DNA of 64,000 nt, from the NCBI GenBank assembly GCA_000182565.2, contig KQ257457.1; one strand, written 5' to 3'. The stretch is from Spizellomyces punctatus DAOM BR117 (taxonomy: Eukaryota). The position numbers and the translations under genes are program-made. This document shows positions 2,279 through 46,819 of the stretch, piece after piece. The notes beneath the pieces are model-generated. The model worked only from the letters and a program-made list of their open reading frames with translations, was not told the origin of the DNA and did no database searches. The stretch's first letter is position 1. Each line of letters opens with the position of its first letter.

Positions 2279-3119
2279 AGTAGGGGGTTGGGATTCAGGA
2301 GATGGCTTTGCGGCGCATTCTTGAGTCAATGCATTATGTCGATGGGAATGGATTCTAGTCGAGTAGAACAGTTCTCCATCACCTATTTATAAATTTCAGA
2401 AAATAAGGAAAGAATGCGAGTAGTCGCGGTCATGGCTCTCTGGGGCATTGAACCTCAACTGAATCTTCTGTATCCAAGCCTTGAGTAAACTGCAATGGTA
2501 TAAACCTCGTATCGCAGCTTACCTGTTCAACTCAAATTCCATCATTGCATTCAAAAAAAAAAGATCCGCCATAGTAGTTCAGTGGGAGTGTGAACGTCTG
2601 TCCAACCTTTTCAAAGGTGCACTATGCCTATTGACCGCTGAGTCTCAATGCAACACGATGAATCATATCGTATGAATCGCTCGTCGCGATTCGAAAGGAT
2701 GATAAACATTTGGAAAATCCATGTCAAGCACAACGAATATAAAAGAACGTTCTGATGAAATGTGGTACTTCCCATTGCATCTAAATGTATTAGATTACAC
2801 AAATGACTGCTTGTAAAATTCAATACGATCTGCATCTATCGGTTTGCTTGCAAGACGTGCCAATGTTCAAAATTCCCCAATGCATCCTAAAAGGAGATCA
2901 ACCGTATTCGCTCCATTGTCCTTCAACTGAACCTCTTACCCAAAGTGTAGTAAGTTTGGGAGTATGATGATCATGTCGATCAGCTCAAAACGACACTATC
3001 GAGATTGAGACATTTAATGCGATACAGAAGGGTAGTGCTAGCTTAAAGTTCGCTGATGCCTATCCTTCCCGGTAATTATGTTAAGGAGGAAGCATCACAG
3101 GTGCTTGGGGGCTACGTAG

Positions 3120-3490
3120 GGATTCTTGAATTTCCATTTGCAAAGACTATTCTGCTCGGTCTACTAGGTTTTATTTTGAAAAATTAAAAAGATAAACAAA
3201 AAGGGACCAGTGGGTCCAGCGGCGTCATATTGGGATCAACCGATGAACCACTGGGGGGCCAATTTAACTCTCGAAAGAGATTTTGGTTATTCACGTCGCG
3301 GGTTTACCATCGCAGGATGGAACTAGCGTGAGCTAGCAGCCCGCGCTTTGTGGAGATCGAACTCAGTCCCTTTCGGGAACTGAGAACGAGCGCATTACCC
3401 CATAAGCTATCCCCACAAAGTCAAAACAAGCTGCTTTTCAAAAAACTTGAGTATTCGCAAACCGCTTCCGAGGCTTTTAGTTTTGTTTAT
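3120..3490 (-). repeat. Inverted copy of the ~310-bp repeat unit, with part of a further spacer
   Basis: Reverse complement aligns by eye to 4860-5170 and 5370-5690, including the spacer AAAACTAAAA..GCGGTTTGC..TCAAGT. Confidence 0.85.
3198..3422 (-). ncRNA. Putative Pol III structured RNA, copy A (tRNA-derived head, hairpin body, oligo-T end)
   Basis: Minus strand: CTTTGTGGGGA-TAGCTTATGGGG (A-box)...GAGTTCGATCTCC (B-box)-ACAAAG at 3346-3420, then CGCGGG..CCCGCG, CCATC-CTGC-GATGG, CCAGTGG..CCACTGG-TCCC-TTTTT. Homologous to copies B and C. Confidence 0.55.
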
Positions 3491-4922
3491 TTTCAAGTGG
3501 GTTGATTGTGCAGTCTGGACTTTGATGCTCTCACGATATGCCCCAACAGAAGTGTGTTTGCTCAACATTTCCAATGTGTGGATGAACAACCTTTGGGCAT
3601 TTCGCCTTACCTGTTCGTCTCAAGATTAGAGCGTCAAGTCCTATGCATAGCTAGCACCCAAATTAAAAAGGCTCTTTTGATGTGCAAGATAGGTTCTGTG
3701 ATGCGTGACTCCAAATGAACCTCTTTGCGTGATATTTCACAAACGTCTCTTGGACCTGCTTGTACGTGTATTCATAGAATCCGTTCCTCAAGTCCATTTG
3801 AAGAGCATGAACATTATACACATGTTGAGGTCATGCGGAATGCAACTTGGAAAGTCTCCACATTACAACTGAATCTCAGTGCGTTCACTCAACTCTATTA
3901 TAACCAGTGAAGAAACGACGCTGATGGTCGTCCCACCATGTGAGGAGCTATAAACCTACGTAAACAATGTATCTCGTCGTACGGGACGGATGCAAAGTAA
4001 GTCTATCCAGGTTGGTGAAATTGTATCGAAACTGATCATGTGTAGCTGCCACATCTTGTGGAATCCTTGTCGATTGTGTGTTTTATTGCGCCAACCGCTG
4101 TTGTAAAAGACTATAAAGGCTACATGTACTGTGGAGTGGAGGGAATAAATGTCGAGTAGAAAACGTCCACGCTGCTACTATTATGTGTTTTGATTGCTTG
4201 GCGACTGGTTGGTGAAAAGGTATTTGTAGATGGAATTAGAAAGCTCATCTAACAGTGCCTATCCGGCTCGTTATACGATCAATGCCTGTAATGACCCACG
4301 TGCTATAATGAAATCTTTCTCTCTGCTTCCCAGTAGGACTCATTGAGCGCACTGATATCCAACCGTCTTCTCCACGAAGATCATCATGATGTTGAAATAC
4401 CGGAATAAACAAAGGAAGCGCATGAAGAGCCGCCATAAACAAAACGCCGTACGTTTGTATCCACTAATGCCGATTATACAAGAGCTCTGAGAACATGGGT
4501 CGATGATGGCGTTATGTATGTATCCTGCATATTACCATATCTCTCCAGTCATGCGCACGGATAAAGAGCTCGCATTATTGGCTTTCGGCCTCTGCCATGT
4601 TCTCACGCGTTTCTGGCCTACGTCAGTTGTGTCCCATGTTCTGTGTCTCAACCAAATAGACTATTCATCGCCTTAATGCCATTTTATCGTGATGTTGCAT
4701 TATTTTCAGCGCAAGTACGTGTCATAAGAAGGGATTCGACCAGAAATCCCGTTTTTTTGACTTTTCAAATTTCTCGGCGTGCCCCCCAGTGATCCATCGG
4801 AATATTGGTGGCCGGTGGACCCACTGGTCTCTTTTTGTTTATGTTTGTATTTTCTTTTTAAAAACTAAAACATCGGAAGCAATTTTGCAATCCTTCAAGT
4901 TTTTCAAGGGGCAAATGGCTTT

Positions 4923-5152
4923 GACTTTGTGGGGATAGCGTATGGGACAATGCGCTCGTTCTCAGTCGCGAAAGGGGCCCAGTTCGATCTCCACAAAGCG
5001 CGGCTGCTAGGTACTGGGTACTAGCATCCATCATTGGATGGACTGACTCGCGACGCTGGGTTTAACCCGGCGTGCACCCCCCCCCCCCCAATAAATGTGG
5101 TTCGACGGCGCCGTCGCAACAAAAATGTGATGGTGCTGTTGACCCCACTTTT
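4923..5152 (+). ncRNA. Putative Pol III structured RNA, copy B (partly decayed)
   Basis: Head 4925-4998; TCCATC-ATTG-GATGGA; ACGCTGGG-TTTAA-CCCGGCGT; expanded poly-C; T-rich end. The inner head hairpin is disrupted. Confidence 0.45.
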
Positions 5153-5437
5153 GTTCATCTTTTTTATTTTTTGAAACCTAAAGTGTTAAAAGCGGTTTGC
5201 TAACCAAATCCTTCAAGTGCTTCAAAAACTGAAAACTGGGTGTGTCTATAGTATCAAAATGTAGACTCCTGTCCGCAGATTAATGTGACCGGGTAGAAAT
5301 ATCGGTGGGACGCTGGTGGACCCAATGGTCTCTTTTGTTTATCTTTGTATTTTTTTATTTTTTTTTTTTTTGAAAACTAAAGCGTTAGATGCGGTTTGTC
5401 AATCCTTCTTCAAGTCCTCAAAAAACCAGTTGGTTCT

Positions 5438-5649
5438 GACTTTGTGGAGATAGCTTATGGGGTAAAGCGTTCGTTCTCGGTCCCGAAAGGGACTGAGTTC
5501 GATCTCCACCATGCGCGGAATATAGTTTCCATCAATAGATGGCGTAACCGCGACGCTGAGCTTGTTCAACAACTCGGGTCCCGAACCCGTACGGACAAAG
5601 CTCGGCGTGCCCCCCAGTGTCGCCTTGGTGACTTTACTGGTCCCGTTTT
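5438..5649 (+). ncRNA. Putative Pol III structured RNA, copy C
   Basis: GTGGAGA/TCTCCAC acceptor-like stem, GCTT-ATGGGGTA-AAGC D-arm, GTTCGATC B-box; body hairpins intact; ends CTGGTCCC-GTTTT. Confidence 0.55.
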
Positions 5650-5898
5650 GGTTTTCTTTTTATTTTTTGTAAACTAAAACGCTGGAGATTGTTTATAATT
5701 GCTCGTCCCCACAAGGTTGTAAACCTGAATTTGCAACCAACGAGATATCTTTTTCTTATATTCATCATGGAGAACATTATGAAGCATTTTCAATTTACAT
5801 GGAGTAGAATATAGAGAGATTCTCAATTAACAGTAATATCTAATCTGCGTGGAAGGTTGAAACGAATCGAACAAAAAACCTTGTCTCTATGTCACTCT

Positions 5899-6615
5899 CT
5901 ATCCATACCAGCCTTCATCCACTCCGCCACAGTTTGCGACAGCCCTCCCAATCTCTTCCCAGTATCCCGGAAAAGCATCATAAGGATTCGGCATCGGATC
6001 GTCTGTCAGGAATATCCACTGATACCCGTCCGCCACGACATCTCGGATGACATTGTCGAGCTCCTCTTTGGACCATGTAGGCGTGGAATGCAGAATCAGA
6101 CCACATGATGAGGATTGAGCGGGTGGACGGAATTGAGTCCACTCTTTGTAGTTGTTTTCACAGACTATACAGATGGTGCTAATGTCTGGAAGCAGGTAGA
6201 CAGGGTTGGGAGGTGTACCCGGGTTGATCACCACCACGCCGTCATCCCATAGTTCGCTCGCAAAAGCTTTGTAGGCCCTGTATACGTCGCTTTCCTTTAC
6301 TCCCGTTGAGCACTCATCCAGAAATACTCCATCCACATCCCACAAAGCCCATTGTTTTATATCCGCCCGCACATCAGACGTATCCCGCTTCCCCCATGCT
6401 GTCGAGACATAGCCGATGAGTATGGCGTTGGGATACCTCCGCAGTTGCGTAAGCGCGGCTGCGTAGTTTGTGTCAAGAGCAGTGCCTGGACCGCTGCAGG
6501 GATTTATGATGAGTATGTGCGGGATATTTGGGTTGGTTTTAAGTGAGACGTAGACGGGGTTCCAGGCAGTTGGTGTAGGGTAAATATAGAGAGGAAAGAT
6601 GAGACCGAGCGGCAT
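5899..6615 (-). CDS. Spherulin-4 / Sph3-like protein (GH135 family), intronless
   Basis: PLYIYP...W, IINPCSGPG, LIGYVSTAWG, VDGVFLDE, VVINPGT, NPYDAFPGYWE are characteristic of spherulation-specific family 4. Confidence 0.85.
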   Translation of the reverse strand: MPLGLIFPLYIYPTPTAWNPVYVSLKTNPNIPHILIINPCSGPGTALDTNYAAALTQLRRYPNAILIGYVSTAWGKRDTSDVRADIKQWALWDVDGVFLDECSTGVKESDVYRAYKAFASELWDDGVVVINPGTPPNPVYLLPDISTICIVCENNYKEWTQFRPPAQSSSCGLILHSTPTWSKEELDNVIRDVVADGYQWIFLTDDPMPNPYDAFPGYWEEIGRAVANCGGVDEGWYG

Positions 6616-7413
6616 GGTTTAGATCGACGGTTGGAAATTTAGTAGTTGATAGGCTCCCGCTATGCAAGACGAAATAATCAAGTCAAACGCTTAAAAGTGA
6701 ATACCAAACAATATTGGTTGTCTCCCGAATGTGTGTATCGTCCAGCAGTGTTGAACAATGATTTGAAGCCCCTAACCTGCTCACAAGACGATCCATGTCA
6801 AGTTGCAGCAGCTCACTTTCCGATTTTCATTAACCATGACTTTTTGTGCAGCCGTGGGCCGCCGGAACAGGTTCCGACATTGATACTATTGGCAAATACC
6901 CAACGATGAGGGGATGATCCTTTGGATTTGTTTGTTGATATCAACTCCATCCATCAAGCCATAATGATGGCTGGCAACGTATCGCAAATGACATGTATAA
7001 ACCTCAAAACTTTCAACGTGGCTGTTAACGCTATGGCAGTAAACTCTTGTCTATACAGTCGACAGCATCCAGATGCAATCACAAAATAAAACGTCCAAGA
7101 AAAAACTCCGCCCAACTTAAAGTGGATTACGCAATCAAATGCAAATTTCGTCCGTTGATGACTCACAAACTCGACCTTCAAAGCGATCCTCAAAATCGCC
7201 CTGCAAGCGTTTATTGTTCCTTTTGGCTTTTCTTCGGAGGTTTTTTGTTTTTGTGTGTTTGTCGTGATATGAGGGTTCAGGGTTTGTGGGTGTGCCATGC
7301 TTTCATCAAGGAATATCTCCGAACTACGGAGTGATTCCACTTCACACAAAGGAAGCCTAGATATTCGACCCCCAAATTGTGAGTTTCTTGGCCTTTTTTT
7401 TTCTTTGTTTTGC

Positions 7414-18488: not shown

Positions 18489-21027
18489 CTACAACTTTTG
18501 CAGCCCTTCAATAACCTCCGCCAATTTTTTCTTGTAGTCTAAAAGTTTGTCCACGACCACTTTCACTACCTCAGCGTCCGCCTTCTCTGTCTTTAGTTTC
18601 CTCACTTCATCACCCGCAAGCTTTATCTGCTCCTCCAACTCCACAATCTCCGGTGTCTTGACTACCCCCGCTGGCGCCTCGCTAAGCCCTGCCGCAGCAG
18701 CCTTGGCTTTCGCTGCCTTTCTTTTCGACGTCTTTGAAACACCGGCGTCGCTATCTGCCTGGTTGCCCCCGTACTTTCTGCGCCATTCATCTGCCTTTTC
18801 GGGTTTGATGATCGAAAAGAGATACTCTGCCTCTCCAATGACATGTCCTGCTTCAATGTCTTTCCCTGACCATGTATCCGTAATTTTGCGTGTGGGGAGC
18901 CGAAGTTGTTTGAAGATGCTTTCAGAGGTTGTGGGCATGTAGGGGTAAATGAGTGCTGCGATGAGATAGGCCAGGTTGGCCGCGACGCTAATGACCGTGT
19001 CGCATCGTTCACGTGCGTTGGCGAAAAGCTTGTTGTCGATGCGATTGTCTTGAAGGTAGAGGTTTCCGCGTGCAGAGATATCCATAGCCAGTTTGAGACC
19101 TAGCCGGAGCTTCACGCCTTCGAGAGCTTCGTTGTACTGTTTCAACAGCCCGTTGACGTCATCGATCAGTTTTGCTTCTACTTCGTCCGTGACAGAATAA
19201 GATGGAATCGTCCGTTCGTACTTTGCGTTCAAAAACTTCACAACTCGATTGACAAAGTTGCCAAGGTTGGCCAACAGCTCGTTGTTATTGCAAGCAACAA
19301 ATCCGCTCCAGGTGAATTGCGAGTCTCCGGTTTCAGGTCGGTTGGAAAGAAGGTAGTACCGCCATACAGCAACTGAGACGCCGACTTCCACTACATGATT
19401 GCCAAAAACGCCAATGCCCCGAGATTTTGAGAATTTGCCGCCTTCATATTGCAGATATTCTAACATGATCTAGGTATCAGTATCCGACGTTTTTAAGCCA
19501 TGCGATGGACATTCTACCAACATACCTGTCGTGTTAATGTGATGCAAAAGAGTCCAATCCTCCCCGGTACCCAATAGCGTTGACGGAAACACTACGGTAT
19601 GGAACGGTACATTATCCTTGCCCATGAACTGGAAAAGCTCAACGTGCTCAGGATTCTTCCACCATTTCTCCCAGTCGTCTGTGTAATTAGCCGTAATGGA
19701 TGGGTATCTACGAATCATGTGTCAAATTCCTATCATGAACGAAACTTTGATTGATATGCCAAGCATACCCGATGCAAGCGTCAAACCACACGTAAAACAC
19801 CTTCTCTCTGAACCCATCCTTGGGAACCGGAACTCCCCACTTGAGGTCACGGGTAATACAGCGTTCTTTTAGCCCTTCCTTAAGCCACGCCTTTGTGATG
19901 TTGATTGTGTTTTGCGACCACAGTCCTAAAGGCGAGTATCGATATAAAGCAGTTTCAGGGTTCTTGCAATGCACAATCTACGTACCATGCACGCTAGACT
20001 TCTCTACCCACTTTTCAAGTTCAGCTTGCGACTTGCCCAAATCCAAGAAGATATGTGCCGTTTCTCTCGGTACAGGCGTCGTTTTGTCAAGTTTGCAGTG
20101 CGGGTTGATCAATTCGGTCGGATCCAGAAGCTTTCCACACTCGTCGCATTGATCACCGCGGGCATCCTATGTACATGTAAGCGCACATGTAAACGCAAGT
20201 TCGAGAAGAATCTCGAAAACAGTCAATCTGACGAACCTTGTATTTGCAGTTTGGGCAAGTTCCTTCAACAAACCGATCTGCCAGGAATCTGTACAGTAAA
20301 CCAGTTCAGAATCATATCCACCAATTTTTGCAATACTTTTAACCTACGAATTGTGATGATTGCAGTACAACTGCGTCATGGTTCTCTCCACCGTTAGGCC
20401 CTTTACGTCAATAGCATTGAAAATCTTTTGTGTGATCCTGAACAGGAGAAATCAGTCCATGTAATTCTTTGGCATAATTCAAGGAGAGCGGTATTTACTG
20501 TGTATGCTTTTCGGTAGGCGTCCGTCCAAAGTAGTCAAAGTCACACGAGAACCACTCGTAGGTCTTTTTATGTATTGTGTGATATTTATCGCAGAGCTCT
20601 TGGCAGGACACACCCTCCTCCAAAGCCTTTGTCTCTGTCGCTGTTCCGTACTCGTCCGTTCCGCAAATGTAGAGTGTGTTATAACCCCGCAGTCGACAGT
20701 ATCTGGCATGACAAATGAGCAATGGTAATGAAAGTGAGCAAGCATTATAAAGCCCTACCGTGCAAACACATCGGCACTGAGAACGCAGCCGATAATGTTG
20801 CCCAAGTGGGGCACGTTATTCACATAAGGTAGCGCGCTGGTGATGAGGACATTGCGCTGGTCGGGTTTGGGCAACCTGGAAGATACTAAGTATGAATAAA
20901 ATGAAACCACATATAATCTCTTGCACAGAGCAACTTACACGAGACTTTCATGGTGCTTGAGTTCAATGGTAACGTCGTTGTTCACCCTTGGCAGCGGCCC
21001 GCCATCCTTCACCCCGTCAGTACTCAT
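18489..21027 (-). CDS. MES1: Cytosolic methionyl-tRNA synthetase with C-terminal WHEP-like domain, multi-exon
   Basis: [38 protein letters not shown] zinc knuckle, [23 protein letters not shown]. Confidence 0.95.
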
Positions 21028-24568: not shown

Positions 24569-27500
24569 TCATCTTCCAGTGCTGTAATACTAATCCAGTA
24601 TGAATGTAAGGGGAATAGAGGGTTGTGTACCTCATGTCAAACTTACTTCATTGAAACTTAGTCGGACGCTTAGAGCTCGGAGTGTCTCATCAGCATGCTC
24701 CGCCAACAGTTCCATAAAATTTGACAGCTCCTCCTACCAAAGGCAATATGCTTTAAAAAGCAACCCGATGTGGTGCGCTGCCTGCTTGAGAACATACCCG
24801 GAATCGCTCAGCACCACGGTTCAATTCCGCCCGTATATTCTCTAAAGATTCCGTCCCGTCCTCCTCAGGTAATAAGTCTCCGTCCGCATGTATGTGGGAA
24901 ATATCAAAACTTCGCTACAAATTTCACCATCCAACAACCTGTCAACTTTCAAAGACGCTAAACAAACAAATATTTGGACCAACCTCCCGAAAGTCCAGAT
25001 TCGCTCTCTGTTCTTGTCGAGCGAGCGCAGTCCCATACTTGTGTAAACGCTCCTATAAGAAATCCAGACCGTCAATATTATTGCCTTAAATTGAGACTTT
25101 TCTTTCTAATTAGCCATTCACCTGTGCCTCCCGAAACTCCAAGATCACATCAACAATCTTGAACAACGTTGGCGGCTCATCCTAATAAAAACGACACTTA
25201 GCTTGCATAAACACAAAAATATTCAGCGCGCCTACTACCTTGTGCTTTCGAGCTCCCAGCATGCTTTTAGATATGATGGTGTTGAGGTATCGTAGGTACC
25301 CCCGAATAAGGAGATCCATGTCCGGTTTGCTCGCAATCAGAGTCTTCAGCTCGTCCCATGAACACTCCAAGACCTTGCAAGTACGATCAATTAAGCAAAC
25401 TTACAAAGCCACCAAATGGAAACAAGANNNNNNNNNNNNNNNNNNNNNNNNNNNNNNNNNNNNNNNNNNNNNNNNNNNNNNNNNNNNNNNNNNNNNNNNN
25501 NNNNNNNNNNNNNNNNNNNNNNNNNNNAATTCCAGCACTTGCAGACGTACTTGGCGAGTGTCGAAGATTCTGCGCTAATCTCATCCGTGGCTTCCAGGTA
25601 GATGACAACGCATGCTCCACGCGCTTCATCTTCCACAGAAAGTTGGATATCTTCTTGCACAGGTGCATTGCGGTGTTATTGATGACAGTATTAATGGGAG
25701 ATTGCAGTTGGTAGACGAGCGTGAAGACATCCCATCCAATGTCTCCAGGTGAACTCTGCACGGATAACAGGTCATCCATGGCTCTTGTAACGATTACACT
25801 CGTGTGTATCAAATCCATACCTGCAACATCCGGACATCGAGCCGTGAGGTTATATCTGGGTCGTCATACTGAGCGTTCGACATTCGAATCCCTGTTTCGA
25901 GAGAGGATGCTAGATTGTGCCGGAAGAGGGTATTTGCTGGCTTTGTGAGAGCGACGCTGCATACCGACGCGTTAGTTTCGATGACTGCACAGCACTGAAA
26001 ACATCCGTGTGAGCTCACCCGATCTCATCGACAACATATTGGATAAGGTCGCCTTGTCCCAGGAAGAGGTATTTCCTGATCGCCTCCAAGTGCTCCATAA
26101 GCTTATATTTTGTCAACAAGCTGTCGATGACTTTCTGCGTCGTCGCTGTGTAGGCTTTATTGATCATATCCCGGAGCGTGTGGTAATTGCCGTATTCAAA
26201 TCCTTGATCGAAGATTTAGAAGGGTGAAGAGCGTGTGTTAAGCTACATAAGCGTACCTTGGGCATTTTGTCCCTGCTGGCTACTCATGATCACATACTCG
26301 CTATCCCCACATTGACTTCGCAAGAAATTCAGGTTCTTGCCTATCATGAATATCTACGTTACGGTAAGCCAGGATCGAAAAAAAAAGAAAATGGATAATG
26401 GAAATCATTGAGACGCACCTTCTTGGCGACCATTGGCTCAATGAAAGACGGTATCATGTTTTCTCTCATACTGTACGAGACCTCCCAAAAGTCTTCTTCT
26501 TTGCCAACGGGATGCCCAACAATAAAGAATTCGTCGAAAGGATCGTCAAGCTGTCCTTCATATATCCACAGTTTGAGCATATTGTAAAAAGGTTTGCAGA
26601 CCTGTCGCATGGCACAGACTCAACCGTTAATGGAAACTAATAGGATAGTAGCTCTCTGCCCGCCTTACGTCAGACATCAAGTGATGAATAAATTGCTGAA
26701 TGAAGGGATCGCCATGATGAACATAGTCATGAAGTGTCGCCAAAAGCTCTCCACCCCGATCATCTATTGTCAAATCGTGTGTTCAGCATACGTAGCCATA
26801 TCGGAGAACAAGATACCCCAACTTACCGATACACAGATCCACCAAAACCCCCATGACCCGCAATCGTTGCAACGGATCCTGTGTCCATACGTATAACCGC
26901 TTTAAAGTCAAGGATGGACGGGAAGCAGATTTTTCATCATCTGATGGTGTTATTTGGGCTTGCAGGATTGCAATGAGTCGATAGTAGTCTGTCATTTCTC
27001 GCTGTATCGCTGAGCAGAAGCTCTGACAAATAGATAAGCAACCAATTGATAGTGTGCGAGGCGAGAAGCAAAAAATACCTGAGCCATTAGCCCTATACCA
27101 GCATGATTTGTTTGAAACTTCAAAAAAGAAGTTATTCTTCTGTAGAGCCATCCAAGTTCGGTCAAGCGGTGGAGAAGTTCACGAAGAGGTTGCGAGATTT
27201 GAACCTGTAAAACCGCCACACTTAGCACACTAGACAACGTGAATTGTTCACCAGCACCATCTTACTTTCTCGTCAATAACGTATGTTTCAGTAGAGTCAT
27301 TGTATTTAATGTATCGCCCGTCTATACCCTGAAAAACGTAGACAATGTCTTGGAGCCATTCTGACTCCAAAACGGTGTTTGAATCTACCAAGGTACAGCG
27401 GTACAAATATGAGTCTGTGTCAATATATACAAGTGTGAGGCATTTGAGCACCCTCACCAGTCCTCCAAGTTTTGAGATATTGCGTATTCTCAGCAAGCCC

Positions 27501-33797: not shown

Positions 33798-36700
33798 CTA
33801 CCGCTTGCCACGCTCAAGCAACTCGTTCACCACGGGTTCCAAATCCGGCCACCTGGTTTTCACAGTAGTTTGCACTTTTGAAACCAAATGGGGAGCATTG
33901 GCTTTCATAAGCTTCTCCATGATCGTTCGTATCGTCTTTGGTGTTGGTCGTGCCGGGTACCCCTGCCTGTCCATGAGGGTAAACACTTTGACGCTACCGA
34001 ATAAATCACCACAGCGCATCAAAGCTTCTATGTAGGAATTGCACATGTTTTCTGTAGGCCAATGCTTCCATCGCCAAGGTTGCAATGCTGACTTTTCGCT
34101 AGAGTTTTCTACAGGCGTGGACTCTAGTGTTGATGCTTCACCCTCCACTGCGTTCCGCTCCCCTTGGGTGTCCCGCATGCTCAAAACCTCCTTCCACACA
34201 TTCCGAACATTAACTACACCCAACGCCCTATCTCCGCTCCATTTCCCTTTACCAGCGACATTGCCCGCGAGATCAATGAAGCAACATACAGTCGCTTCAT
34301 TAACAAGTTCGTCTGCGCTCCTTGTCCGTGGTCGTCGTGTGAGAAAGCCCACTTTGGGCCCGACCCACTCTGTACCCTTTGTAGCCCAATCCCACAAGAT
34401 ACCCGCTTCCTCGACCCATTCCGCTTTTAGGCATATCTTCATTGCTGTGCCCACTGTCACATCATCCACTTTTGGGGCAGCGATTCGGGAGAGGAACGAC
34501 ATTGCCGCAAGATGGTTGCCTTTCATGCAGTGAGCGTTAGCCAGCATATGAAGGAGTTGCGTATCTGGAGAATTTGGCAAGCGAGCCATCAATGGCGAGA
34601 TTGCTGTTGATGCCCGAGACATGGGCCGCTTCAAAGACTGTGATGGTCTGTTTTTTTTCACAGATAGCGTGGCTTCAATCATGGCCTTTTCGGCGCCACT
34701 TAGATCATCAGCGGTAATATAAGCGGCTACAAGATGTCGCCATGTCACTTGGTCTGGATCCATGCCGTCGACTGTCATACGGTCCATCCACTTTCGCGCC
34801 TGATCCACTTTTCCGCTTGACGCAAAAACTTTCATGACCGAGTGATGAAACAGCATAGAGGGTCTGAGATCGCTCGAACGCAAAGTTTCGTTCAACACTT
34901 GCATCAAGGCAGGTTCATCGTCTGCCTTTCCAAACGCCGCAATCAGGTTGATGAATGTTGCTTCTGTAGGCTTCAAGCCCACTGCTAACATGTTCTTCCA
35001 TCGCTTCTGTGCCAGTTTGGCATCACCAGCCATGGCGGCATGTTCGATTAAGAGGTTATGGGTATGCGCGGTGGGGGTTAATTTGTGGGAAGAAAAACTG
35101 GCCATCCAACGATCGACCTCACGATCCGGAAATGGAACCTGTTGCGATTTCAGGGAAGATGATAATAGGGTATTGAAGGTCACCGCATCAGGCGTCGTTT
35201 TCCCTTCCACCTCCATCTCTTCATACTTTTGACAGCACCGCCAATATTCACCGACTTCTTTCCAACCGGCCAAAATGATATTCCAATCGAGTGTATCCAT
35301 TGTCTGATTGCCTTTGCGAATTACGCCCTCGCATTTCTCAGGCTCGCCCAACTTTGCGTATGTGCGCGCTACCGTTCGTCGCCAGACAACGTCAGTATCG
35401 ATACCCTCTTTCTCCATCTCCTGCTTCAGCTTTTCAACATCCCCAATACTTTCACAAGTAGCTAAAAGGGCGGTATATGTAACCAAATCTGGCTTCAGCC
35501 CCGCTTTTGCCATGGACGTCAGGGCTAGCTTGGCGCCCTTCACATCACCTTTCTTTCCTAATCCAGCAATAAGGTCATTGTATGCCCACGTATCGGGTTT
35601 GGTATTGGCTTCAAGAACGGATCCCAGCTGATCCAAGACCGACAAAGCATCCTGAGGTTTTCCTGCTTCAACGTATGCTTTCACGACCAAGTTTTGCACA
35701 ATGACATCGGGTACGACCCCAGCCGCTACGATGCGGCACACCAGATCAAGGACAGACGCAAATTCGCCGCGTTTAGCCAGTTCAGTCATTAAATCGACGT
35801 AAAATGATTCCGATAATTCTATGCCCATCTTCATTGTTCTATCGAGCAACAAGAACCCAGTCTCCATATGGCCAAACTTGATAGCTTCAATAATTGCTCG
35901 CGACATTGCGGTGTAACAATTCGCACGTCCGAGCTCGATTATTCTGAAACATGCTGACTCTGCTTTTTCGGGCAATCCCTGGCGTGCATACAGAATGGCA
36001 AGGCTCTCGTACATGCCGGCATCTACTTTATCACCCGCATCCAAAAGAACCTGTTCAGCTTCCATCTGCATCCCCGCAGAACAAAGTGCGCTAATCACAC
36101 GGCCGCGTTGGGCAATGGGTATACACGGATCCCTCTCCTTGAGGTGTGTGTACGCCTTCCAGACGCCCGCACCGTCCTGAGCGGATGTCATGCATTCGAG
36201 AGCAATTGCAAATACTTTCTGCAAAAGACGTTGAGTTTCATCGGTTTTGCCTGGAAAGCGAGCCACATCGTCTAAGCAGCGATTGAGAAAGCCCAAAGGC
36301 CACTTCATTTGATGCGAACCAAATATTGCTTGGTATACTGTGAGTGAGATTACGACGCCGTGTGCTGTTAGCACATCGTACCAACTAGAAAATGACACGG
36401 CATCCCTCCTTGCATAAGCATACATCAACAACTTTGCAGCTCCTTCGGCAGTCGGTAGACGCGGCGCTTGTCCAATAACCTTCCCAACTAATTTTGATCC
36501 CAGAGTGCCATCAAATTCTCTCAAGATGTTGAATACAAAGCGCCACGCGGCATGCTCTGGCGTTATCCTCTTCGACACGGCATCATCTAATACCCATTCA
36601 AAGTCCGCAATTTTGTCGCTGATTTGGTTCAGACCTTTTGCCATTTGTACTACTATATCCTCCTGGAATGACATACCCTCCAACACCGATGTCCTGTATA

Positions 36701-38837
36701 TCTTGAGCGCTGACATCAAGTCTCCGCAACCGAGAAGACCTGCGACCAGCCCAGCCGTTGTCGGATATTTAATCAATCTTCGTGCTCCAAAAGATTCCTT
36801 CGCACGGAGGGAGACTTCATGGGCAGCTAGCCAGCAACGAGCTGCATCCGTGAAGCGCATATCCCGACAGAGGCCATCCACAGCAACGTCTATCGCTTTG
36901 AATGCGTCTGTTACTTCGTCCCGACATATCGCAGCGACAAGATCAACAACTTCATCAAATTGTTTACCGGCAAGCGCAACTTCCACTCTCAGGCGCAACG
37001 TGATAGCTGTTGGGCTTAAGCCGGCCGAGTCCATGATATGAAGTGTATCAATAGCTTCCGAGACGAGCCCAGCCCGCATATAGCCTTGTATCAGCGCATT
37101 GTAGCATGCCACATCCGGTTTAATGCCACTGCTACGCATTCTATCCCACACCTCCTGTAATCCATGAATATCGGCCATTCGTGCGTAAGCGCCGAGAATG
37201 GGACTATACGTAGCGGCAACCGGGGCTAAAGCAAGCGTCGGAAGGGAATTGAACAGGCGGAGTGCTTGAGGAAATGTGGTGGGTGACTTTGCAAGGGCCG
37301 ATATACGCCGGTTGGCGATCAATATATCCGTCAACATTGTGGGGGCAGGACTCAGGGTCGTCACAACCACAGGGTCCTGCACGCTCTCTTTCAGTTTCTT
37401 CGGGGAAATATCATATGTATCCTGTGATTTTCCAGTTGGAATAAGTTCACCCACAAGGCCTCCACATGGTTGGCTCTCAAGAAGAGCTGGCCCGCTTGTT
37501 GCGCTTTCCCGGTTGCGGGTCATCTCCCGCCAGACGTGCTCCAGTGTGGAATCAACCATGCAATCATGCTCAATCATAAGCTGATGCATGGCGGGTACCG
37601 CAGTAAGAGCATCGCGATTCAGAAGCTCTGTTATGGCAACGCGATAGAAACTACCGGGGTCATCTTCAACGATTTTACGTTCTTGTGAGAGCTTTAACCA
37701 TTTTTTTACTCTCCCTAGGTCCCTTTTCGAGCAAGCTAGTCGGATCATAGCTAGAAGCACCTTTGCTGTTGGTTGTCCACCATTGTGCAGAAGCTCATTG
37801 TACCATCTCTCCGCTAGTTCATTCTGACCTTGCTTGGCAGAAGCCTCGACAAATCGCTCATAAATCCAGAGAGGAGGTTTATGACCGGCATTTACCATCG
37901 CATGGTAGTGAGTTTCTGCTCGCTCCACATCCTCATTCCGCAAAAAACCTGCTATAATAGTCCGGTACGTGGTTTCATCAGGTGTGATCCCCTCCTCAGT
38001 CATTCTGCCAAGCATGCGCATCGATGCGTCTGTTTGCCCCGCCCGTATAAAGCATTTTACCAGTATGTTATAGGTCAAGGCATCCGGAACTATTCCATCT
38101 TCTTCCATCCTCTGCATTACCAGAGAGATCTCTTCAGTGGCACCGGATTCCAAGTTTGCGGCCAAACCAGCCAGAATAGTGTTGTACGTGACTTTGTCGG
38201 GATGAATACCTATTTCACGCATTCTCGCAATTCCGTTTCTCAATCCTTCAATGTTCCCCTTTCGAGCAAAATCAGAAAGCAGGAGATTATACGTGACAAC
38301 GTTCGGTTGAATTCCCCGCAATTCCATTTCACCCAAAACTGAACGAACGGCCTCCTGGTGACTCAGCTCTACGTATGCTAGAATAAGATGATTATAGTCC
38401 TGCTGATCCATCGGTAAGGACAGTCGTCGCATGTCGGCTGTCAAACGAAGGGTGACCAGCGCAACACGGCGTCGAGATTCCGTTCTCCGCACACATGCGA
38501 GCAGTCTGCGAATCAGGTAAGGAGTAACTCTCGTAGAGCCCACGGGGCTTTCAATAATTCTCCTATAACTGGCCAAAGCCCCCCTAGTGTCGCCGTTTTG
38601 GATCTCATGGTTAAGTTTGCGAAGAAAGCGACGGGTGCCGGCTGCGTCCTGTAACGCAGGTGCTACCGGAGGGCTTGACGTAATGGAAGCAAGAGACGCT
38701 CTAGGCCTAGACGGAAGTCTTAATATGGATGCACGATAGCGCAATATGCAGGGTTTGAATAGACGGATGCAAAAAGTCATGAAGAACGGGCATCTTTGAA
38801 GAGATCTACAGCGACGAGCCACGGTTGAAGGAAGCAT
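33798..38837 (-). CDS. Large pentatricopeptide-repeat (PPR) protein, 1679 aa, intronless, probably mitochondrial
   Basis: Repeated 35-aa motifs (PNVVTYNLLL, PDKVTYNTIL, PDALTYNILV, PDVACYNALI, PDLVTYTALL) in three clusters; Arg-rich N-terminus. Confidence 0.92.
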   Translation of the reverse strand: MLPSTVARRCRSLQRCPFFMTFCIRLFKPCILRYRASILRLPSRPRASLASITSSPPVAPALQDAAGTRRFLRKLNHEIQNGDTRGALASYRRIIESPVGSTRVTPYLIRRLLACVRRTESRRRVALVTLRLTADMRRLSLPMDQQDYNHLILAYVELSHQEAVRSVLGEMELRGIQPNVVTYNLLLSDFARKGNIEGLRNGIARMREIGIHPDKVTYNTILAGLAANLESGATEEISLVMQRMEEDGIVPDALTYNILVKCFIRAGQTDASMRMLGRMTEEGITPDETTYRTIIAGFLRNEDVERAETHYHAMVNAGHKPPLWIYERFVEASAKQGQNELAERWYNELLHNGGQPTAKVLLAMIRLACSKRDLGRVKKWLKLSQERKIVEDDPGSFYRVAITELLNRDALTAVPAMHQLMIEHDCMVDSTLEHVWREMTRNRESATSGPALLESQPCGGLVGELIPTGKSQDTYDISPKKLKESVQDPVVVTTLSPAPTMLTDILIANRRISALAKSPTTFPQALRLFNSLPTLALAPVAATYSPILGAYARMADIHGLQEVWDRMRSSGIKPDVACYNALIQGYMRAGLVSEAIDTLHIMDSAGLSPTAITLRLRVEVALAGKQFDEVVDLVAAICRDEVTDAFKAIDVAVDGLCRDMRFTDAARCWLAAHEVSLRAKESFGARRLIKYPTTAGLVAGLLGCGDLMSALKIYRTSVLEGMSFQEDIVVQMAKGLNQISDKIADFEWVLDDAVSKRITPEHAAWRFVFNILREFDGTLGSKLVGKVIGQAPRLPTAEGAAKLLMYAYARRDAVSFSSWYDVLTAHGVVISLTVYQAIFGSHQMKWPLGFLNRCLDDVARFPGKTDETQRLLQKVFAIALECMTSAQDGAGVWKAYTHLKERDPCIPIAQRGRVISALCSAGMQMEAEQVLLDAGDKVDAGMYESLAILYARQGLPEKAESACFRIIELGRANCYTAMSRAIIEAIKFGHMETGFLLLDRTMKMGIELSESFYVDLMTELAKRGEFASVLDLVCRIVAAGVVPDVIVQNLVVKAYVEAGKPQDALSVLDQLGSVLEANTKPDTWAYNDLIAGLGKKGDVKGAKLALTSMAKAGLKPDLVTYTALLATCESIGDVEKLKQEMEKEGIDTDVVWRRTVARTYAKLGEPEKCEGVIRKGNQTMDTLDWNIILAGWKEVGEYWRCCQKYEEMEVEGKTTPDAVTFNTLLSSSLKSQQVPFPDREVDRWMASFSSHKLTPTAHTHNLLIEHAAMAGDAKLAQKRWKNMLAVGLKPTEATFINLIAAFGKADDEPALMQVLNETLRSSDLRPSMLFHHSVMKVFASSGKVDQARKWMDRMTVDGMDPDQVTWRHLVAAYITADDLSGAEKAMIEATLSVKKNRPSQSLKRPMSRASTAISPLMARLPNSPDTQLLHMLANAHCMKGNHLAAMSFLSRIAAPKVDDVTVGTAMKICLKAEWVEEAGILWDWATKGTEWVGPKVGFLTRRPRTRSADELVNEATVCCFIDLAGNVAGKGKWSGDRALGVVNVRNVWKEVLSMRDTQGERNAVEGEASTLESTPVENSSEKSALQPWRWKHWPTENMCNSYIEALMRCGDLFGSVKVFTLMDRQGYPARPTPKTIRTIMEKLMKANAPHLVSKVQTTVKTRWPDLEPVVNELLERGKR

Positions 38838-39023
38838 CCTTCGGTTCCATCCAAGTCAGAATCTAATATTAGTCATCGTCGGAGTTTTCGCTGTTAACCC
38901 TTGGTAACAGCTCCAGGCTTTCAGGATCTCCGGTCCTTCCCTGCGCCCTCAATCCTTTGTTGGGCAATTTCAAACATTTCACCTTGGTCTGGTACATATT
39001 TCATTGCCTTGGAAGGTACCAAG

Positions 39024-44356: not shown

Positions 44357-44495
44357 TGCAATTAGAATATTATTATTGTATCATTGTAAACCTGGTCCTC
44401 AAGATCTGATAGTGTATTGGCATTTGGTTCTTTAACGTTTACTTGGGCTTATGAAAATACACCAGATAAATATCATCAACCCCTTGATTCACGTC

Positions 44496-44568
44496 GGGCC
44501 TATGGCCCAATGGATAAGGCGCCTGACTACGGATCAGGAGATTCCAGGTTCGAATCCTGGTAGGCTCG
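44496..44568 (+). tRNA. tRNA-Arg(ACG), intronless
   Basis: Cloverleaf: GGGCCTA/TAGGCTC, CCTGA-CTACGGA-TCAGG, CCAGG-TTCGAAT-CCTGG; T-run terminator at ~44590. Confidence 0.97.
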
Positions 44569-45029
44569 TTCTGTGGACAGACTGAATCCTTTTTTTCAGC
44601 AGAACAAACGATCACTAGAAACACAGTGGGCATCCGTTATAGTAGAATACAGCGTTTAAGAGGTTGTAGGATGAAATGCCTTATATTGTCCCAAAGCAAA
44701 GGATACACTCTGGATGGTTAGTTTTACAGCTTGCTGGCCTGCAATTGTCGTTGTTCAACAGCAGGCGATTGAAAAATAGCGAAAGGACATGGTCTGTGAT
44801 AAAACTAACCTTGAATTGATTTTCAAAGTACCGCAGCCGACTACCTTCACTAACAAGATTCCGATAGATCCACAAACATTTACTACCATGCTGTGACGGG
44901 GATTATCTTTTGGTGGGTATTTCATTCGGATGCTGTTCTAGCACGGACGCAAAGTACAATAGCGGAAAAGTATTTGAGAGTAGATATCTATATAGATAAC
45001 AACATGGTAATAGAGTCGAATAAATACTA

Positions 45030-46657: not shown

Positions 46658-46819
46658 CTGTTAATAGAAGGCAAAGTATGGGAACTATTCATATCACTTC
46701 ATATTCTGGCCACGCACGCTTTATGCAGATTATATTCTAGACATACACACATATTCATGTTGATACAGTTTATATTCTGGACAAACACACTATTCACTTT
46801 GATATACAATAGGTGCATA

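Follow-up and report, generated by a model that had tools for sequence, protein, structure and literature searches.

A PIG-L-like gene and a Spherulin4 gene converge on a gap of 3.6 kb, which was filled by an array of five related units, lying between positions 3122 and 5705 of the window (the whole stretch of DNA analysed, 64 kb in length). The window comes from a chytrid, one of its ORFs being 100% identical to a Spizellomyces punctatus protein. Of the units, A (minus strand), B and C (both plus strand) were near-complete, whereas U1 and U3 were truncated. The succession of spacer, tRNA-like head, body and T-rich tail is given in Table 1. A repeat of about 310 bp with three near-complete copies had been described in an earlier note, and blastn, nhmmer profiles and the helix table all bore it out. 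The unit extents proposed there were too short, because a spacer belongs to each unit. One of its two supposed 3′ fragments, at 4773 (U1), was indeed 5′-truncated, whereas the other turned out to be a whole decayed unit (U3). A partial spacer that followed unit A as well had been missed in that first reading.

Table 1. Coordinates of the array and of its flanking genes, with the basis for each assignment.
Feature	Position	Strand	Basis or content
PIG-L-like gene	3′ end ~2278	plus	
Partial second spacer beyond A	3122–3179	minus	spacer likeness by eye; homology with C reaches 3168
A, T-rich tail	3180–3204	minus	three sense T5 runs, at 3202, 3190 and 3183
A, body	3205–3344	minus	fold −83.5 kcal/mol, z −3.6; helix table
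A, tRNA-like head	3345–3420	minus	helix table, fold; 89% identical to B and C heads
A, upstream spacer	3421–3486	minus	aligned with B and C spacers; 67–75% identity vs 55–57% for shuffles
U1, 5′-truncated	4773–4857	plus	nhmmer E = 1.3e-22; helix P4 intact
B, spacer	4858–4924	plus	alignment, nhmmer, identity comparison
B, head	4925–4999	plus	closing stem P1 11/11 pairs; GAAA hairpin H2 degraded, 3/9 mismatched
B, body	5000–5148	plus	fold −99.3 kcal/mol, z −4.7; helix table
B, T-rich tail	5149–5171	plus	T4, T6, T6
U3, decayed	5172–5370	plus	spacer nhmmer E = 3.9e-6; tail profile E = 6.4e-16
U3, spacer	5172–5232		
U3, unrecognisable head	5233–5297		
U3, 3′ hairpin remnant	5298–5332		
U3, T-rich tail	5333–5370		
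C, spacer	5371–5439	plus	alignment, nhmmer, identity comparison
C, head, best tRNA-like copy	5440–5514	plus	Rfam tRNA 21 bits; H2 9/9 pairs
C, body	5515–5645	plus	fold −84.9 kcal/mol, z −4.2; helix table
C, T-rich tail and start of next spacer	5646–5705	plus	T4, T4, T5, T6 within 5646–5668; C–A homology reaches 5680 (blastn), the stretch on to about 5705 judged by eye
Spherulin4 gene	5899–6618	minus	

The blastn search suggested in the earlier note was run on the window with A, B and C as queries and showed clustering only, all matches being confined to 3160–5690. With nhmmer --max, a spacer-plus-head profile recovered A at 3341–3485 (minus), B at 4859–5003 and C at 5371–5518 with E-values from 1e-46 to 8e-47, and an extra spacer at 5172–5246. 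A profile of the 3′ hairpin and tail matched five sites (3168–3260, 4779–4871, 5083–5183, 5290–5383 and 5607–5680; E-values from 5.5e-13 to 7.9e-23). These E-values place the unit matches beyond chance. The remaining ~61 kb of the window gave no further family match with E < 0.7 with these profiles. A metagenome scan with the head pattern returned 0 matches, and the 14 contigs picked up by a head/body junction pattern (51–74% G+C) were alike only around the pattern, the longest alignment being 47 nt at 81%; none of them was a family member. The literature on Spizellomyces or chytrid SINEs, Pol III and non-coding RNA yielded no such family, the supplementary repeat tables of PMC5364385 being a place where it might be listed as an unclassified repeat. 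The repeat family is real, low-copy, of Pol III type and hitherto undescribed.

Head A had a closing stem of 11 bp, a D-arm-like hairpin and a GAAA hairpin of 9 bp, and carried A- and B-box-like motifs. In the body of A, a CGCGG/CCGCG domain containing a CTAGC hairpin and CCATC-CTGC-GATGG was followed by a UUCG hairpin and by a terminal CCAGTG...CACTGG hairpin. In the body of B, an 8-bp hairpin and CCATC-ATTG-GATGG lay within a CGCGG/TCGCG domain; its other elements were a short P3 hairpin, a C13 tract and a terminal stem of 4+17 bp with many G.U pairs. In the body of C, CCATC-AATA-GATGG lay within a CGCGG/CCGCG domain, accompanied by a long P3 arm and a CCAGTG...TACTGG hairpin. Truncated unit U1 contained the 3′ strand of helix P3, the terminal hairpin and the T-rich tail, and shared an exact 19-nt match with C (5601–5619). 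With 51–53% identity, the “head” of U3 was no closer to the real heads than shuffled sequence. Both U1 and U3 are dead.

Conservation was unequal along the unit. Identity among A, B and C was 81–89% in the heads, 63–75% in the spacers and 60–62% in the bodies, compared with 54–58% for shuffles, the bodies being near the random level. As judged from these alignments, the data support a constraint that is uneven between the parts, in the direction proposed by the first reading. The head and a small number of helix-closing motifs may have been the main targets of selection or gene conversion, and the head would then combine a promoter and a structural module.

The predicted folding of the three units was strong, none of 200 shuffles being as stable. 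When 2500–6129 was covered with 32 sliding 220-nt segments, eight had z ≤ −2 for one or both strands, and each of these overlapped a unit. The sense fold was more stable than the antisense fold in B (−99.3 vs −78.1 kcal/mol), in C (−84.9 vs −72.7 kcal/mol) and in all three heads. The body of A was the exception, with the antisense (−50.5 kcal/mol) slightly better than the sense (−45.8 kcal/mol). The antisense strands of A and of the heads also folded better than shuffles.

The earlier note had reported stems kept while their loops diverged. This was correct for the CCATC-loop-GATGG hairpin, with its three different loops. The surrounding CGCGG..CCGCG helix was found in A and C, and its B version was altered, the partner being TCGCG with one G.U pair. 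The compensatory pair proposed between ACGCTGGG/CCCGGCGT in B and ACGCTGAG/CTCGGCGT in C was a true G–C to A–U double change, and the announced contrast in arm length was confirmed with spans of 21 nt in B and 56 nt in C. This helix, P3, also showed a conserved U.G and was absent in A. The terminal CCAGTG...YACTGG hairpin (P4) existed as described, spanning 48 nt in A, 27 nt in C and 42 nt in the 4773 fragment, and was replaced in B by the 4+17-bp stem. In P1, H2, P2 and P4, G.U alternated with A–U or G–C, the changes being mostly compatible with pairing on the sense strand. In the main paralogue seen in the sequencing reads, one H2 pair of A was changed on either side (3377, 3368), and the neighbouring pair 3378–3367 became a wobble. 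Several helices were broken, with mismatches in H2 of head B and at 2 of the 11 pairs of P1 in head C, where one of the nine H2 pairs was G.U. The idea of selection on RNA structure thus stood in part: uneven constraint, G.U-compatible sense changes and the stronger sense folds of B and C argue for it, and the broken helices against it. Three copies are too few for significant covariation. The suggestion that the variable loops are guide-like found no support; those of the conserved hairpin were just 4 nt long, and genomic complements of the variable segments were absent elsewhere in the window at blastn E ≤ 0.01.

The A box has a TRGCNNAGTGG-like consensus and lies near the 5′ end, and a B box is expected 30–60 nt downstream of it. 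The A-box-like motif TAGCTTATGGGG was present at 3398 on the minus strand (A) and at 5451 (C), and B departed from it at two letters. The B-box-like motif AGTTCGATCTCC was found, as claimed, in all three heads (3352 minus, 4981 and 5496), about 46 nt past the A box, and these were its sole three occurrences in the window. It has two mismatches to the consensus GGTTCGANNCC and for this reason was outside the nine window matches within one mismatch of it. A motif search of the window showed that the A- and B-box-like motifs were restricted to the heads. The oligo-T end was upheld: the head and body of all three units, with bodies of 131–149 nt, were devoid of runs of T4 or longer, and three to four runs of T4–T6 were stacked directly after the last hairpin, in a terminator layout. 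The genuine tRNA-Arg gene of the window (44,495–44,569, ARAGORN) also ended in a T7 run.

The heads behaved differently from tRNA genes. The Rfam tRNA model (RF00005) matched head C with 21 bits (E = 0.4, 5444–5510), under the gathering threshold of 29 bits, and heads A and B had no match at E ≤ 10, even in 100-nt searches. The tRNA-Arg was the only tRNA predicted by ARAGORN in the window, with none in the heads. The predicted head fold was a three-way junction lacking the T stem of the cloverleaf. A selenocysteine or class-II tRNA fold was also considered, and no T stem could be drawn by eye. The similarity of the antisense strand of head C to a retrotransposon primer-binding site was just a short coincidence. 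To call a type-2 Pol III unit “established” was therefore an overstatement, as the B box is two mismatches off and the heads fail the tRNA model. As a layout, the units do agree with Pol III transcription from an internal promoter.

In agreement with the earlier note, which had recognised no 5S, SRP, U6, RNase P/MRP or ribozyme core, Rfam 15 gave no match at gathering scores in 3100–5750, nor did its Y, vault and snoRNA models. Apart from the weak tRNA match of head C, the matches at E ≤ 10 (CRISPR-DR46, CrcZ, mir-877 and RFPL3-AS1_2) scored far under their thresholds and were attributed to chance. A likeness to the SRP Alu domain was without Rfam support, and no convincing C/D or H/ACA snoRNA boxes were seen by eye in the bodies.

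The RNA run X15 was strongly 3′-biased, the depth on Spherulin4 being 54 near its 3′ end and less than 1 about 400 nt further in, so that RNAs without poly(A) should be under-sampled. The reads covering head A were assigned to the sense direction, since they lay on the same strand as those of the minus-strand neighbour Spherulin4. About 90% of them carried paralogue variants (133 of 160, 149 of 159, 162 of 173 and 150 of 158), leaving at most about 8 of 158 for head A itself. Sense depth was 0 over the body of A (bin 3161–3271), RNA depth was 0–0.3 over B, and sense depth was 1.4–2.1 over C, with paralogue variants in 3 of 8 and 5 of 6 reads at two sites. The RNA contig run X19 had no contig on the stretch, and a search for sequencing runs containing it listed six entries with part of it, all DNA-like and from one sample, and none of RNA. 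Judged by the single 3′-biased run X15, the local copies are hardly transcribed, most being silent or decaying. A ChIP run without stated target (X16) showed 56 reads at 3399, compared with a local level of about 2–6, and 30 of 34 reads at 3390 carried the variant, indicating that the paralogue is ChIP-enriched. Run X17, a DNA run with flat, input-like coverage, had the variants in 9 of 43, 9 of 40, 8 of 33 and 10 of 46 reads. Paralogue reads also mapped to 3129–3149, in DNA and RNA runs alike. Paralogues thus exist elsewhere, and at least one is transcribed in the sense direction; its signal could equally be a Pol II or read-through transcript. Non-matching sequence was found at the start of 448 of 498 X15 reads (about 90%). 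As this was general, the loose ends at 3405–3412 were technical and did not represent paralogue sequence.

The order spacer-element-spacer applied to all units, even to copy A, which is isolated and inverted. A-rich, simple-repeat or LINE-derived 3′ tails were absent, the sense ends being T-rich and followed by the conserved spacer. Neither copy-specific target-site duplications nor dispersed sites were found in the window for the five units, and an apparent duplication around A was simply the next spacer. Terminal inverted repeats, as expected of a MITE or foldback element, were not found at the unit ends; the inverted repeats of the window were whole units (A versus B or C) or low-complexity T/A palindromes. 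Spacers on both sides of every unit, together with the lack of poly(A) tail, target-site duplication and terminal inverted repeat, argue that the units spread as DNA, and the preference expressed in the earlier note for DNA-level amplification over SINE retroposition was justified.

We propose, with middling confidence, that the array belongs to a low-copy, type-2-like Pol III family which multiplied at the DNA level, through segmental duplications both tandem and inverted, and includes structurally intact (A, C), impaired (B) and dead (U1, U3) members. TFIIIC would bind the head of about 75 nt at its A- and B-box-like motifs, and Pol III would initiate a few nucleotides 5′ of this head. In A, the T6 and T4 runs of the spacer imply that transcription should begin downstream of them. 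The polymerase would read through the body, free of T4 runs, and stop at the stacked T runs beyond the terminal hairpin, producing an RNA of about 215–235 nt. The head of this RNA would form the three-way junction and not a cloverleaf, with the 11-bp closing stem, the D-arm-like hairpin and the 9-bp GAAA-capped hairpin. Its body would be a series of hairpin domains in which the closing helices are kept and the interiors are quickly replaced. It is Pol III that we infer as the polymerase, together with these transcript ends and any function that the family RNA may have.

The array might instead be a working cluster of structured non-coding RNA genes, in which A, C and perhaps B would each encode a stable Pol III transcript that has its own role. 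Such a product could be a structured component of an RNP, or a tRNA-like leader with hairpins processed to small RNAs in the manner of the TMERs, and the variable hairpin interiors would confer copy specificity. Such genes would account for heads and helix-closing motifs kept although neutral-looking sequence is near saturation, for the sense-biased wobble changes and the double changes, for the strong fold z-scores and the clean terminator layout, and for the expression and ChIP enrichment of one paralogue. They also have architectural precedents, namely the TMERs (PMC4337559) and the Yarrowia tRNA-Trp-RUF70 and yeast RPR1 and snR52 leaders (PMC2566860). The near-zero RNA reads of the local copies (in a library of unsuitable type), the decayed U1 and U3 in the same array, the broken head hairpin of B and the non-uniform P3 and P4 hairpins are difficult to reconcile with it, and we consider it rather unlikely.

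It is also conceivable that the units are chytrid-specific cellular Pol III composite genes. A conserved three-way-junction leader, no longer a tRNA, would provide fast-evolving hairpin cassettes with their promoter and might also guide processing, in a cellular counterpart of the TMERs. Each copy would yield either a precursor of small RNAs or a structured RNA specific to that copy. Tandem duplication of the DNA would create new members, while older ones degenerate where they lie. We hold this to be distinctly improbable.

A third possibility would be a DNA-level element for which the RNA is irrelevant, either a decaying satellite or segmental duplication with heads homogenised by gene conversion, or TFIIIC chromatin sites between convergent genes. 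The filling of the gap between the two gene 3′ ends, the dead units and the barely detected local transcripts would be in line with this, and the antisense folds of A and of the heads are better than shuffles, as DNA palindromes would be. The sense-specific stability of B and C rests on G.U pairs, however, which are meaningless in DNA. Moreover, the placement of T runs after the three units and not inside them is a feature of transcription, and sense transcripts of one family member were seen. We regard an irrelevant RNA as quite improbable. Finally, an ordinary tRNA-derived SINE copied by LINE enzymes and inserted repeatedly at one place would agree with the tRNA-like head and its boxes, the paralogues elsewhere and the 5′-truncated copies (U1, U3) common in retroposition, but is very unlikely given the T-rich sense ends, a 60–70-nt upstream spacer that is co-duplicated and also present after the units, which no target-site duplication explains, the confinement of all five units to 2.6 kb, the few paralogues at least 85% alike (a variant share of about 22% in X17) and the <0.01% of this species' genome attributed to SINEs in a published RepeatModeler survey (PMC5364385).

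If the preferred reading of a DNA-spread, Pol III-type family is true, a constrained tRNA-like promoter associated with shifting hairpin bodies would show the birth of Pol III genes out of tRNA-like sequence, and their death. In early-diverging fungi we know of almost no catalogued non-coding RNA genes other than the universal ones. Spizellomyces punctatus is transformable in the laboratory, which makes the functional question testable. Non-functional RNAs would reduce the array to an ordinary small repeat family, relevant to annotation alone.

Several known systems resemble the array in part. In 5S rDNA-type arrays, a short gene, a T-rich terminator and a spacer are repeated head-to-tail, and the gene-proximal parts are more alike. 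The present units have the same layout, with no Rfam 5S match, and the approximately five units are far more diverged than those of arrays in concerted evolution. The tRNA-derived SINEs share with the family a head with A- and B-box-like motifs, an unrelated body, diverged or truncated copies, and one or few active copies among silent ones. They differ from it by the A-rich or LINE-like tail and the target-site duplications that are lacking here, where the spacer was co-copied and the few copies form one block. The TMERs of murine gammaherpesvirus 68 (PMC4337559) are likewise clustered Pol III units with a non-aminoacylated tRNA-like element, stem-loops and T-run terminators. They are viral and carry uniform pre-miRNA stem-loops with proven small RNAs, whereas the hairpins described here are heterogeneous in length and shape, and the likeness is one of architecture only. 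The leader or dicistronic Pol III genes covered by PMC2566860 (the RPR1, snR52 and ZOD1 leaders of S. cerevisiae, and the tRNA-5S and tRNA-Trp-RUF70 genes of Yarrowia lipolytica) also belong to fungal hosts; in them, a tRNA or tRNA-like 5′ module supplies the A and B boxes for a downstream RNA that has no promoter and ends at a T run. By anatomy alone, the units have this leader-type layout, including the single terminator. Unlike these genes, they have a leader that fails the tRNA model and a downstream part that matches no known RNA, and they form a tandem array with dead members. If their RNAs are functional, the units would join, as a cellular case, the few leader-driven Pol III composite genes.

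The repeat family is real, as are its amplification at the DNA level and its Pol III-like layout, and the motifs quoted in the earlier note were all found in place. With the near-complete units A, B and C as blastn queries, matches in the window were confined to positions 3160–5690. Profile searches of the 64-kb window were run in nhmmer with all filters off. A spacer-plus-head profile matched each of the three units with an E-value of ~1e-46 and detected a fourth spacer (E=3.9e-6); a profile of the 3' hairpin and tail matched five places (E 5.5e-13 to 7.9e-23). No further copies appeared in the 64 kb, no other match having an E-value <0.7. The earlier description had to be revised in its details. 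The plus-strand array comprised four units in the order U1 (5'-truncated), B, U3 and C. U3, taken there for a mere 3' fragment, retained an intact spacer and tail, and its "head" showed identity at the level of shuffled sequences. A partial spacer also followed the inverted copy A. Just upstream of U1, a GGGATT...AATCCC hairpin with T7 behind it escaped the nhmmer family profiles; it may be what is left of another unit decayed past recognition.

Features of the repeat array and of the surrounding window.
Feature	Position	Strand	Remark
PIG-L-like gene	3' end ~2278	+	array neighbour, 3' end facing the array
Partial spacer following unit A	3122–3179		
RNA reads antisense to unit A tail	3122–3200	+	depth 4–9
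Hairpin and T7	4731–4758	+	just upstream of U1
U1	4773–4857	+	truncated unit
C13 homopolymer	5077–5089	+	inside unit B body
Terminal 17-bp stem of unit B	5098–5144	+	six G.U pairs (pairing by eye)
U3	5172–5370	+	decayed unit
Fourth spacer	5172–5246		
Spherulin4 gene	5899–6618	-	array neighbour on the other side, 3' end facing the array
Methionyl-tRNA synthetase ORF	18489–19469	-	C-terminus
Assembly gap	25428–25527		100 Ns
PPR reading frame	33798–38855	-	uninterrupted, 1685 aa, many PPR and TPR-like repeats
tRNA-Arg(ACG) gene	44495–44569	+	genuine; Rfam 62.8 bits, perfect B box
Tandem repeat of 40 nt	46726–46804	+	2 copies, 85% matching

The array lies inside a 3.6-kb stretch without convincing ORFs, in a gene-dense eukaryotic window where Pfam recognised PPR, LIM, UBA and Spherulin4 proteins and the C-terminus of a methionyl-tRNA synthetase. 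The synthetase ORF was 100% identical to a protein of Spizellomyces punctatus DAOM BR117 (NCBI), and its next-best matches were in other Spizellomycetales (65–72%), which makes the host a chytrid fungus, one that is non-pathogenic and amenable to transformation. The PPR protein is unusually long for a fungus.

An intact unit consists of a spacer of 66–70 nt, a head of 74–76 nt, a body of 131–149 nt and a T-rich tail. In all three MFE folds the head formed a three-way junction, not a cloverleaf, with a predicted 11-bp closing stem, a D-arm-like hairpin carrying an A-box-like motif (differing at two letters in B from the A box of the earlier note) and a 9-bp GAAA-capped hairpin whose 3' strand runs into a B-box-like motif. 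The first domain of the body is a CGCGG/YCGCG helix around a variable hairpin and the invariant CCATC-N4-GATGG. A second helix, ACGCTGRG/CYCGGCGT, is confined to B (span 21 nt) and C (span 56 nt). The terminal CCAGTG/YACTGG hairpin, which spans 27–48 nt, is replaced in B by a 4+17-bp stem. The 3' arm of this stem differs from the perfect complement of its 5' arm, by eye, only by sense-strand C-to-T changes at CpG, which could be due to strand-biased deamination or to selection tolerating wobble pairs. T runs of four or more were absent from the head and body of A, B and C, and three to four runs of T4–T6 directly followed the last hairpin of each; the genuine tRNA-Arg gene of the window likewise ends in a T7 run, starting ~22 nt downstream. 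The DNA reads of run X17 were heterogeneous at the C13 tract of B (insertion in 5/27, deletion in 6/32, C>G at 5071 and 5075), reflecting either tract instability or sequencing error.

Reads of four runs were mapped over positions 3050–6350. Run X15 is RNA, 3'-biased and sense-stranded, with first mates on the minus strand over the minus-strand Spherulin4 gene, where the depth fell from 54 near the 3' end to <1 some 400 nt deeper into the gene. The depth was 0–0.3 on B and 1.4–2.1 on C, where 3/8 and 5/6 reads were variant at two sites; expression of the local copies in this sample is weak at best. Head A reached a depth of 35–45 in the sense direction. Most of these reads were variant (133/160 at position 3367, 149/159 at 3368, 162/173 at 3377 and 150/158 at 3390), and 17–19 reads formed a second class with other changes, indicating that they come from paralogues elsewhere. 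The changes of the main paralogue fall in the GAAA-capped hairpin, where pair 3377/3368 is altered on both sides and the adjoining pair 3378–3367 becomes a wobble. The same variants were carried by 9/43 to 10/46 reads of X17, a flat, input-like DNA run, so closely similar paralogues must be few. In the ChIP run X16, whose target was not identified, the depth was 56 at 3399 against ~2–6 nearby, and 30/34 reads were variant at 3390. These data show that the family exists outside the array, with at least one member sense-transcribed and chromatin-marked. The paralogue signal could also reflect Pol II transcription or read-through. The plus-strand RNA reads antisense to the tail of A probably arose because oligo-dT primed on its A-rich complement. 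At four of five sites between 3129 and 3149, 26/27 to 28/29 of them carried paralogue variants (12/14 at 3129), which were found in ~28–45% of the DNA reads; the flank past the tail of A is therefore also duplicated elsewhere, and the other copy is transcribed.

We favour, at about an even chance, a low-copy family of Pol III type whose local members are mostly silent or decaying. Transcription of the units by Pol III would yield discrete RNAs of ~215–235 nt with U runs at the 3' end. A cluster of working non-coding RNAs is a distinctly less probable reading; the near-empty B and C are weak evidence in this respect since a 3'-biased library under-samples RNAs lacking poly(A). We consider an element existing only as DNA improbable. 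The interest of the locus would be considerably greater if discrete RNAs or small-RNA products were found.

The MFE values of A, B and C were -83.5, -99.3 and -84.9 kcal/mol, with z-scores of -3.6, -4.7 and -4.2, and none of 200 shuffles folded as well. When 32 windows of 220 nt were folded over 2500–6129 on both strands, z was <= -2 in eight, all overlapping units, and from -1.6 to +1.7 in the others. The antisense strands of B and C reached only -78.1 and -72.7 kcal/mol, and all three heads were clearly more stable in sense; the body of A showed the opposite trend (sense -45.8, antisense -50.5 kcal/mol). G.U pairs, meaningless in duplex DNA, account for the asymmetry. The copies also differ by exchanges that keep pairing. 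In the closing stem, G.U in A and B is A-U in C; in the GAAA hairpin, A-U in A is G.U in C; in CGCGG/YCGCG, G-C in A and C is G.U in B; in CCAGTG/YACTGG, G-C in A and U1 is G.U in C. In the ACGCTGRG/CYCGGCGT helix a G-C pair is exchanged for A-U by changes at both positions, and a U.G is retained. Broken pairs occur in the GAAA hairpin of B (3/9 mismatched) and in the closing stem of C (2/11). With three copies, this evidence for RNA structure is suggestive and not statistical.

Identity, computed over the longer sequence, was 81–89% for heads (shuffles 57–58%), 63–75% for spacers and 60–62% for bodies (shuffles 54–57% for both). Plain DNA duplication predicts an even decay of all parts, so the head is either constrained or being homogenised; in the bodies little beyond the helix-closing motifs is kept. 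An ordinary SINE is very improbable: on the sense strand the units end in T-rich rather than A-rich sequence, and a spacer stands both before and after every unit, the lone inverted copy A included. All inverted repeats at the locus proved to be either T/A low-complexity stretches or entire units facing opposite ways, and a MITE was rejected on that account. Tandem and segmental DNA duplication fits these features, and the earlier preference for DNA-level amplification over retroposition is upheld. A RepeatModeler survey of S. punctatus gives 3.7% repeats and <0.01% SINEs (PMC5364385).

At gathering scores Rfam returned only the genuine tRNA of the window, in agreement with the earlier note, which recognised no 5S, SRP, U6, RNase P/MRP or ribozyme core. 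At E <=10, head C gave a tRNA match of 21 bits, against a threshold of 29, and heads A and B none; ARAGORN called no tRNA at any of the three heads. The head announced as tRNA-derived can thus fairly be called tRNA-like, not a tRNA. The comparison covered Rfam, ARAGORN and the literature, in which searches yielded no published description of the family. The architecture, a 5' A/B-box module followed by an RNA without its own promoter and by a T run, has fungal precedents in the leaders of RPR1, snR52 and ZOD1 and in the Yarrowia tRNA-5S and tRNA-Trp-RUF70 genes (PMC2566860). Murine gammaherpesvirus 68, with its clustered TMERs, provides a further precedent for this arrangement (PMC4337559).
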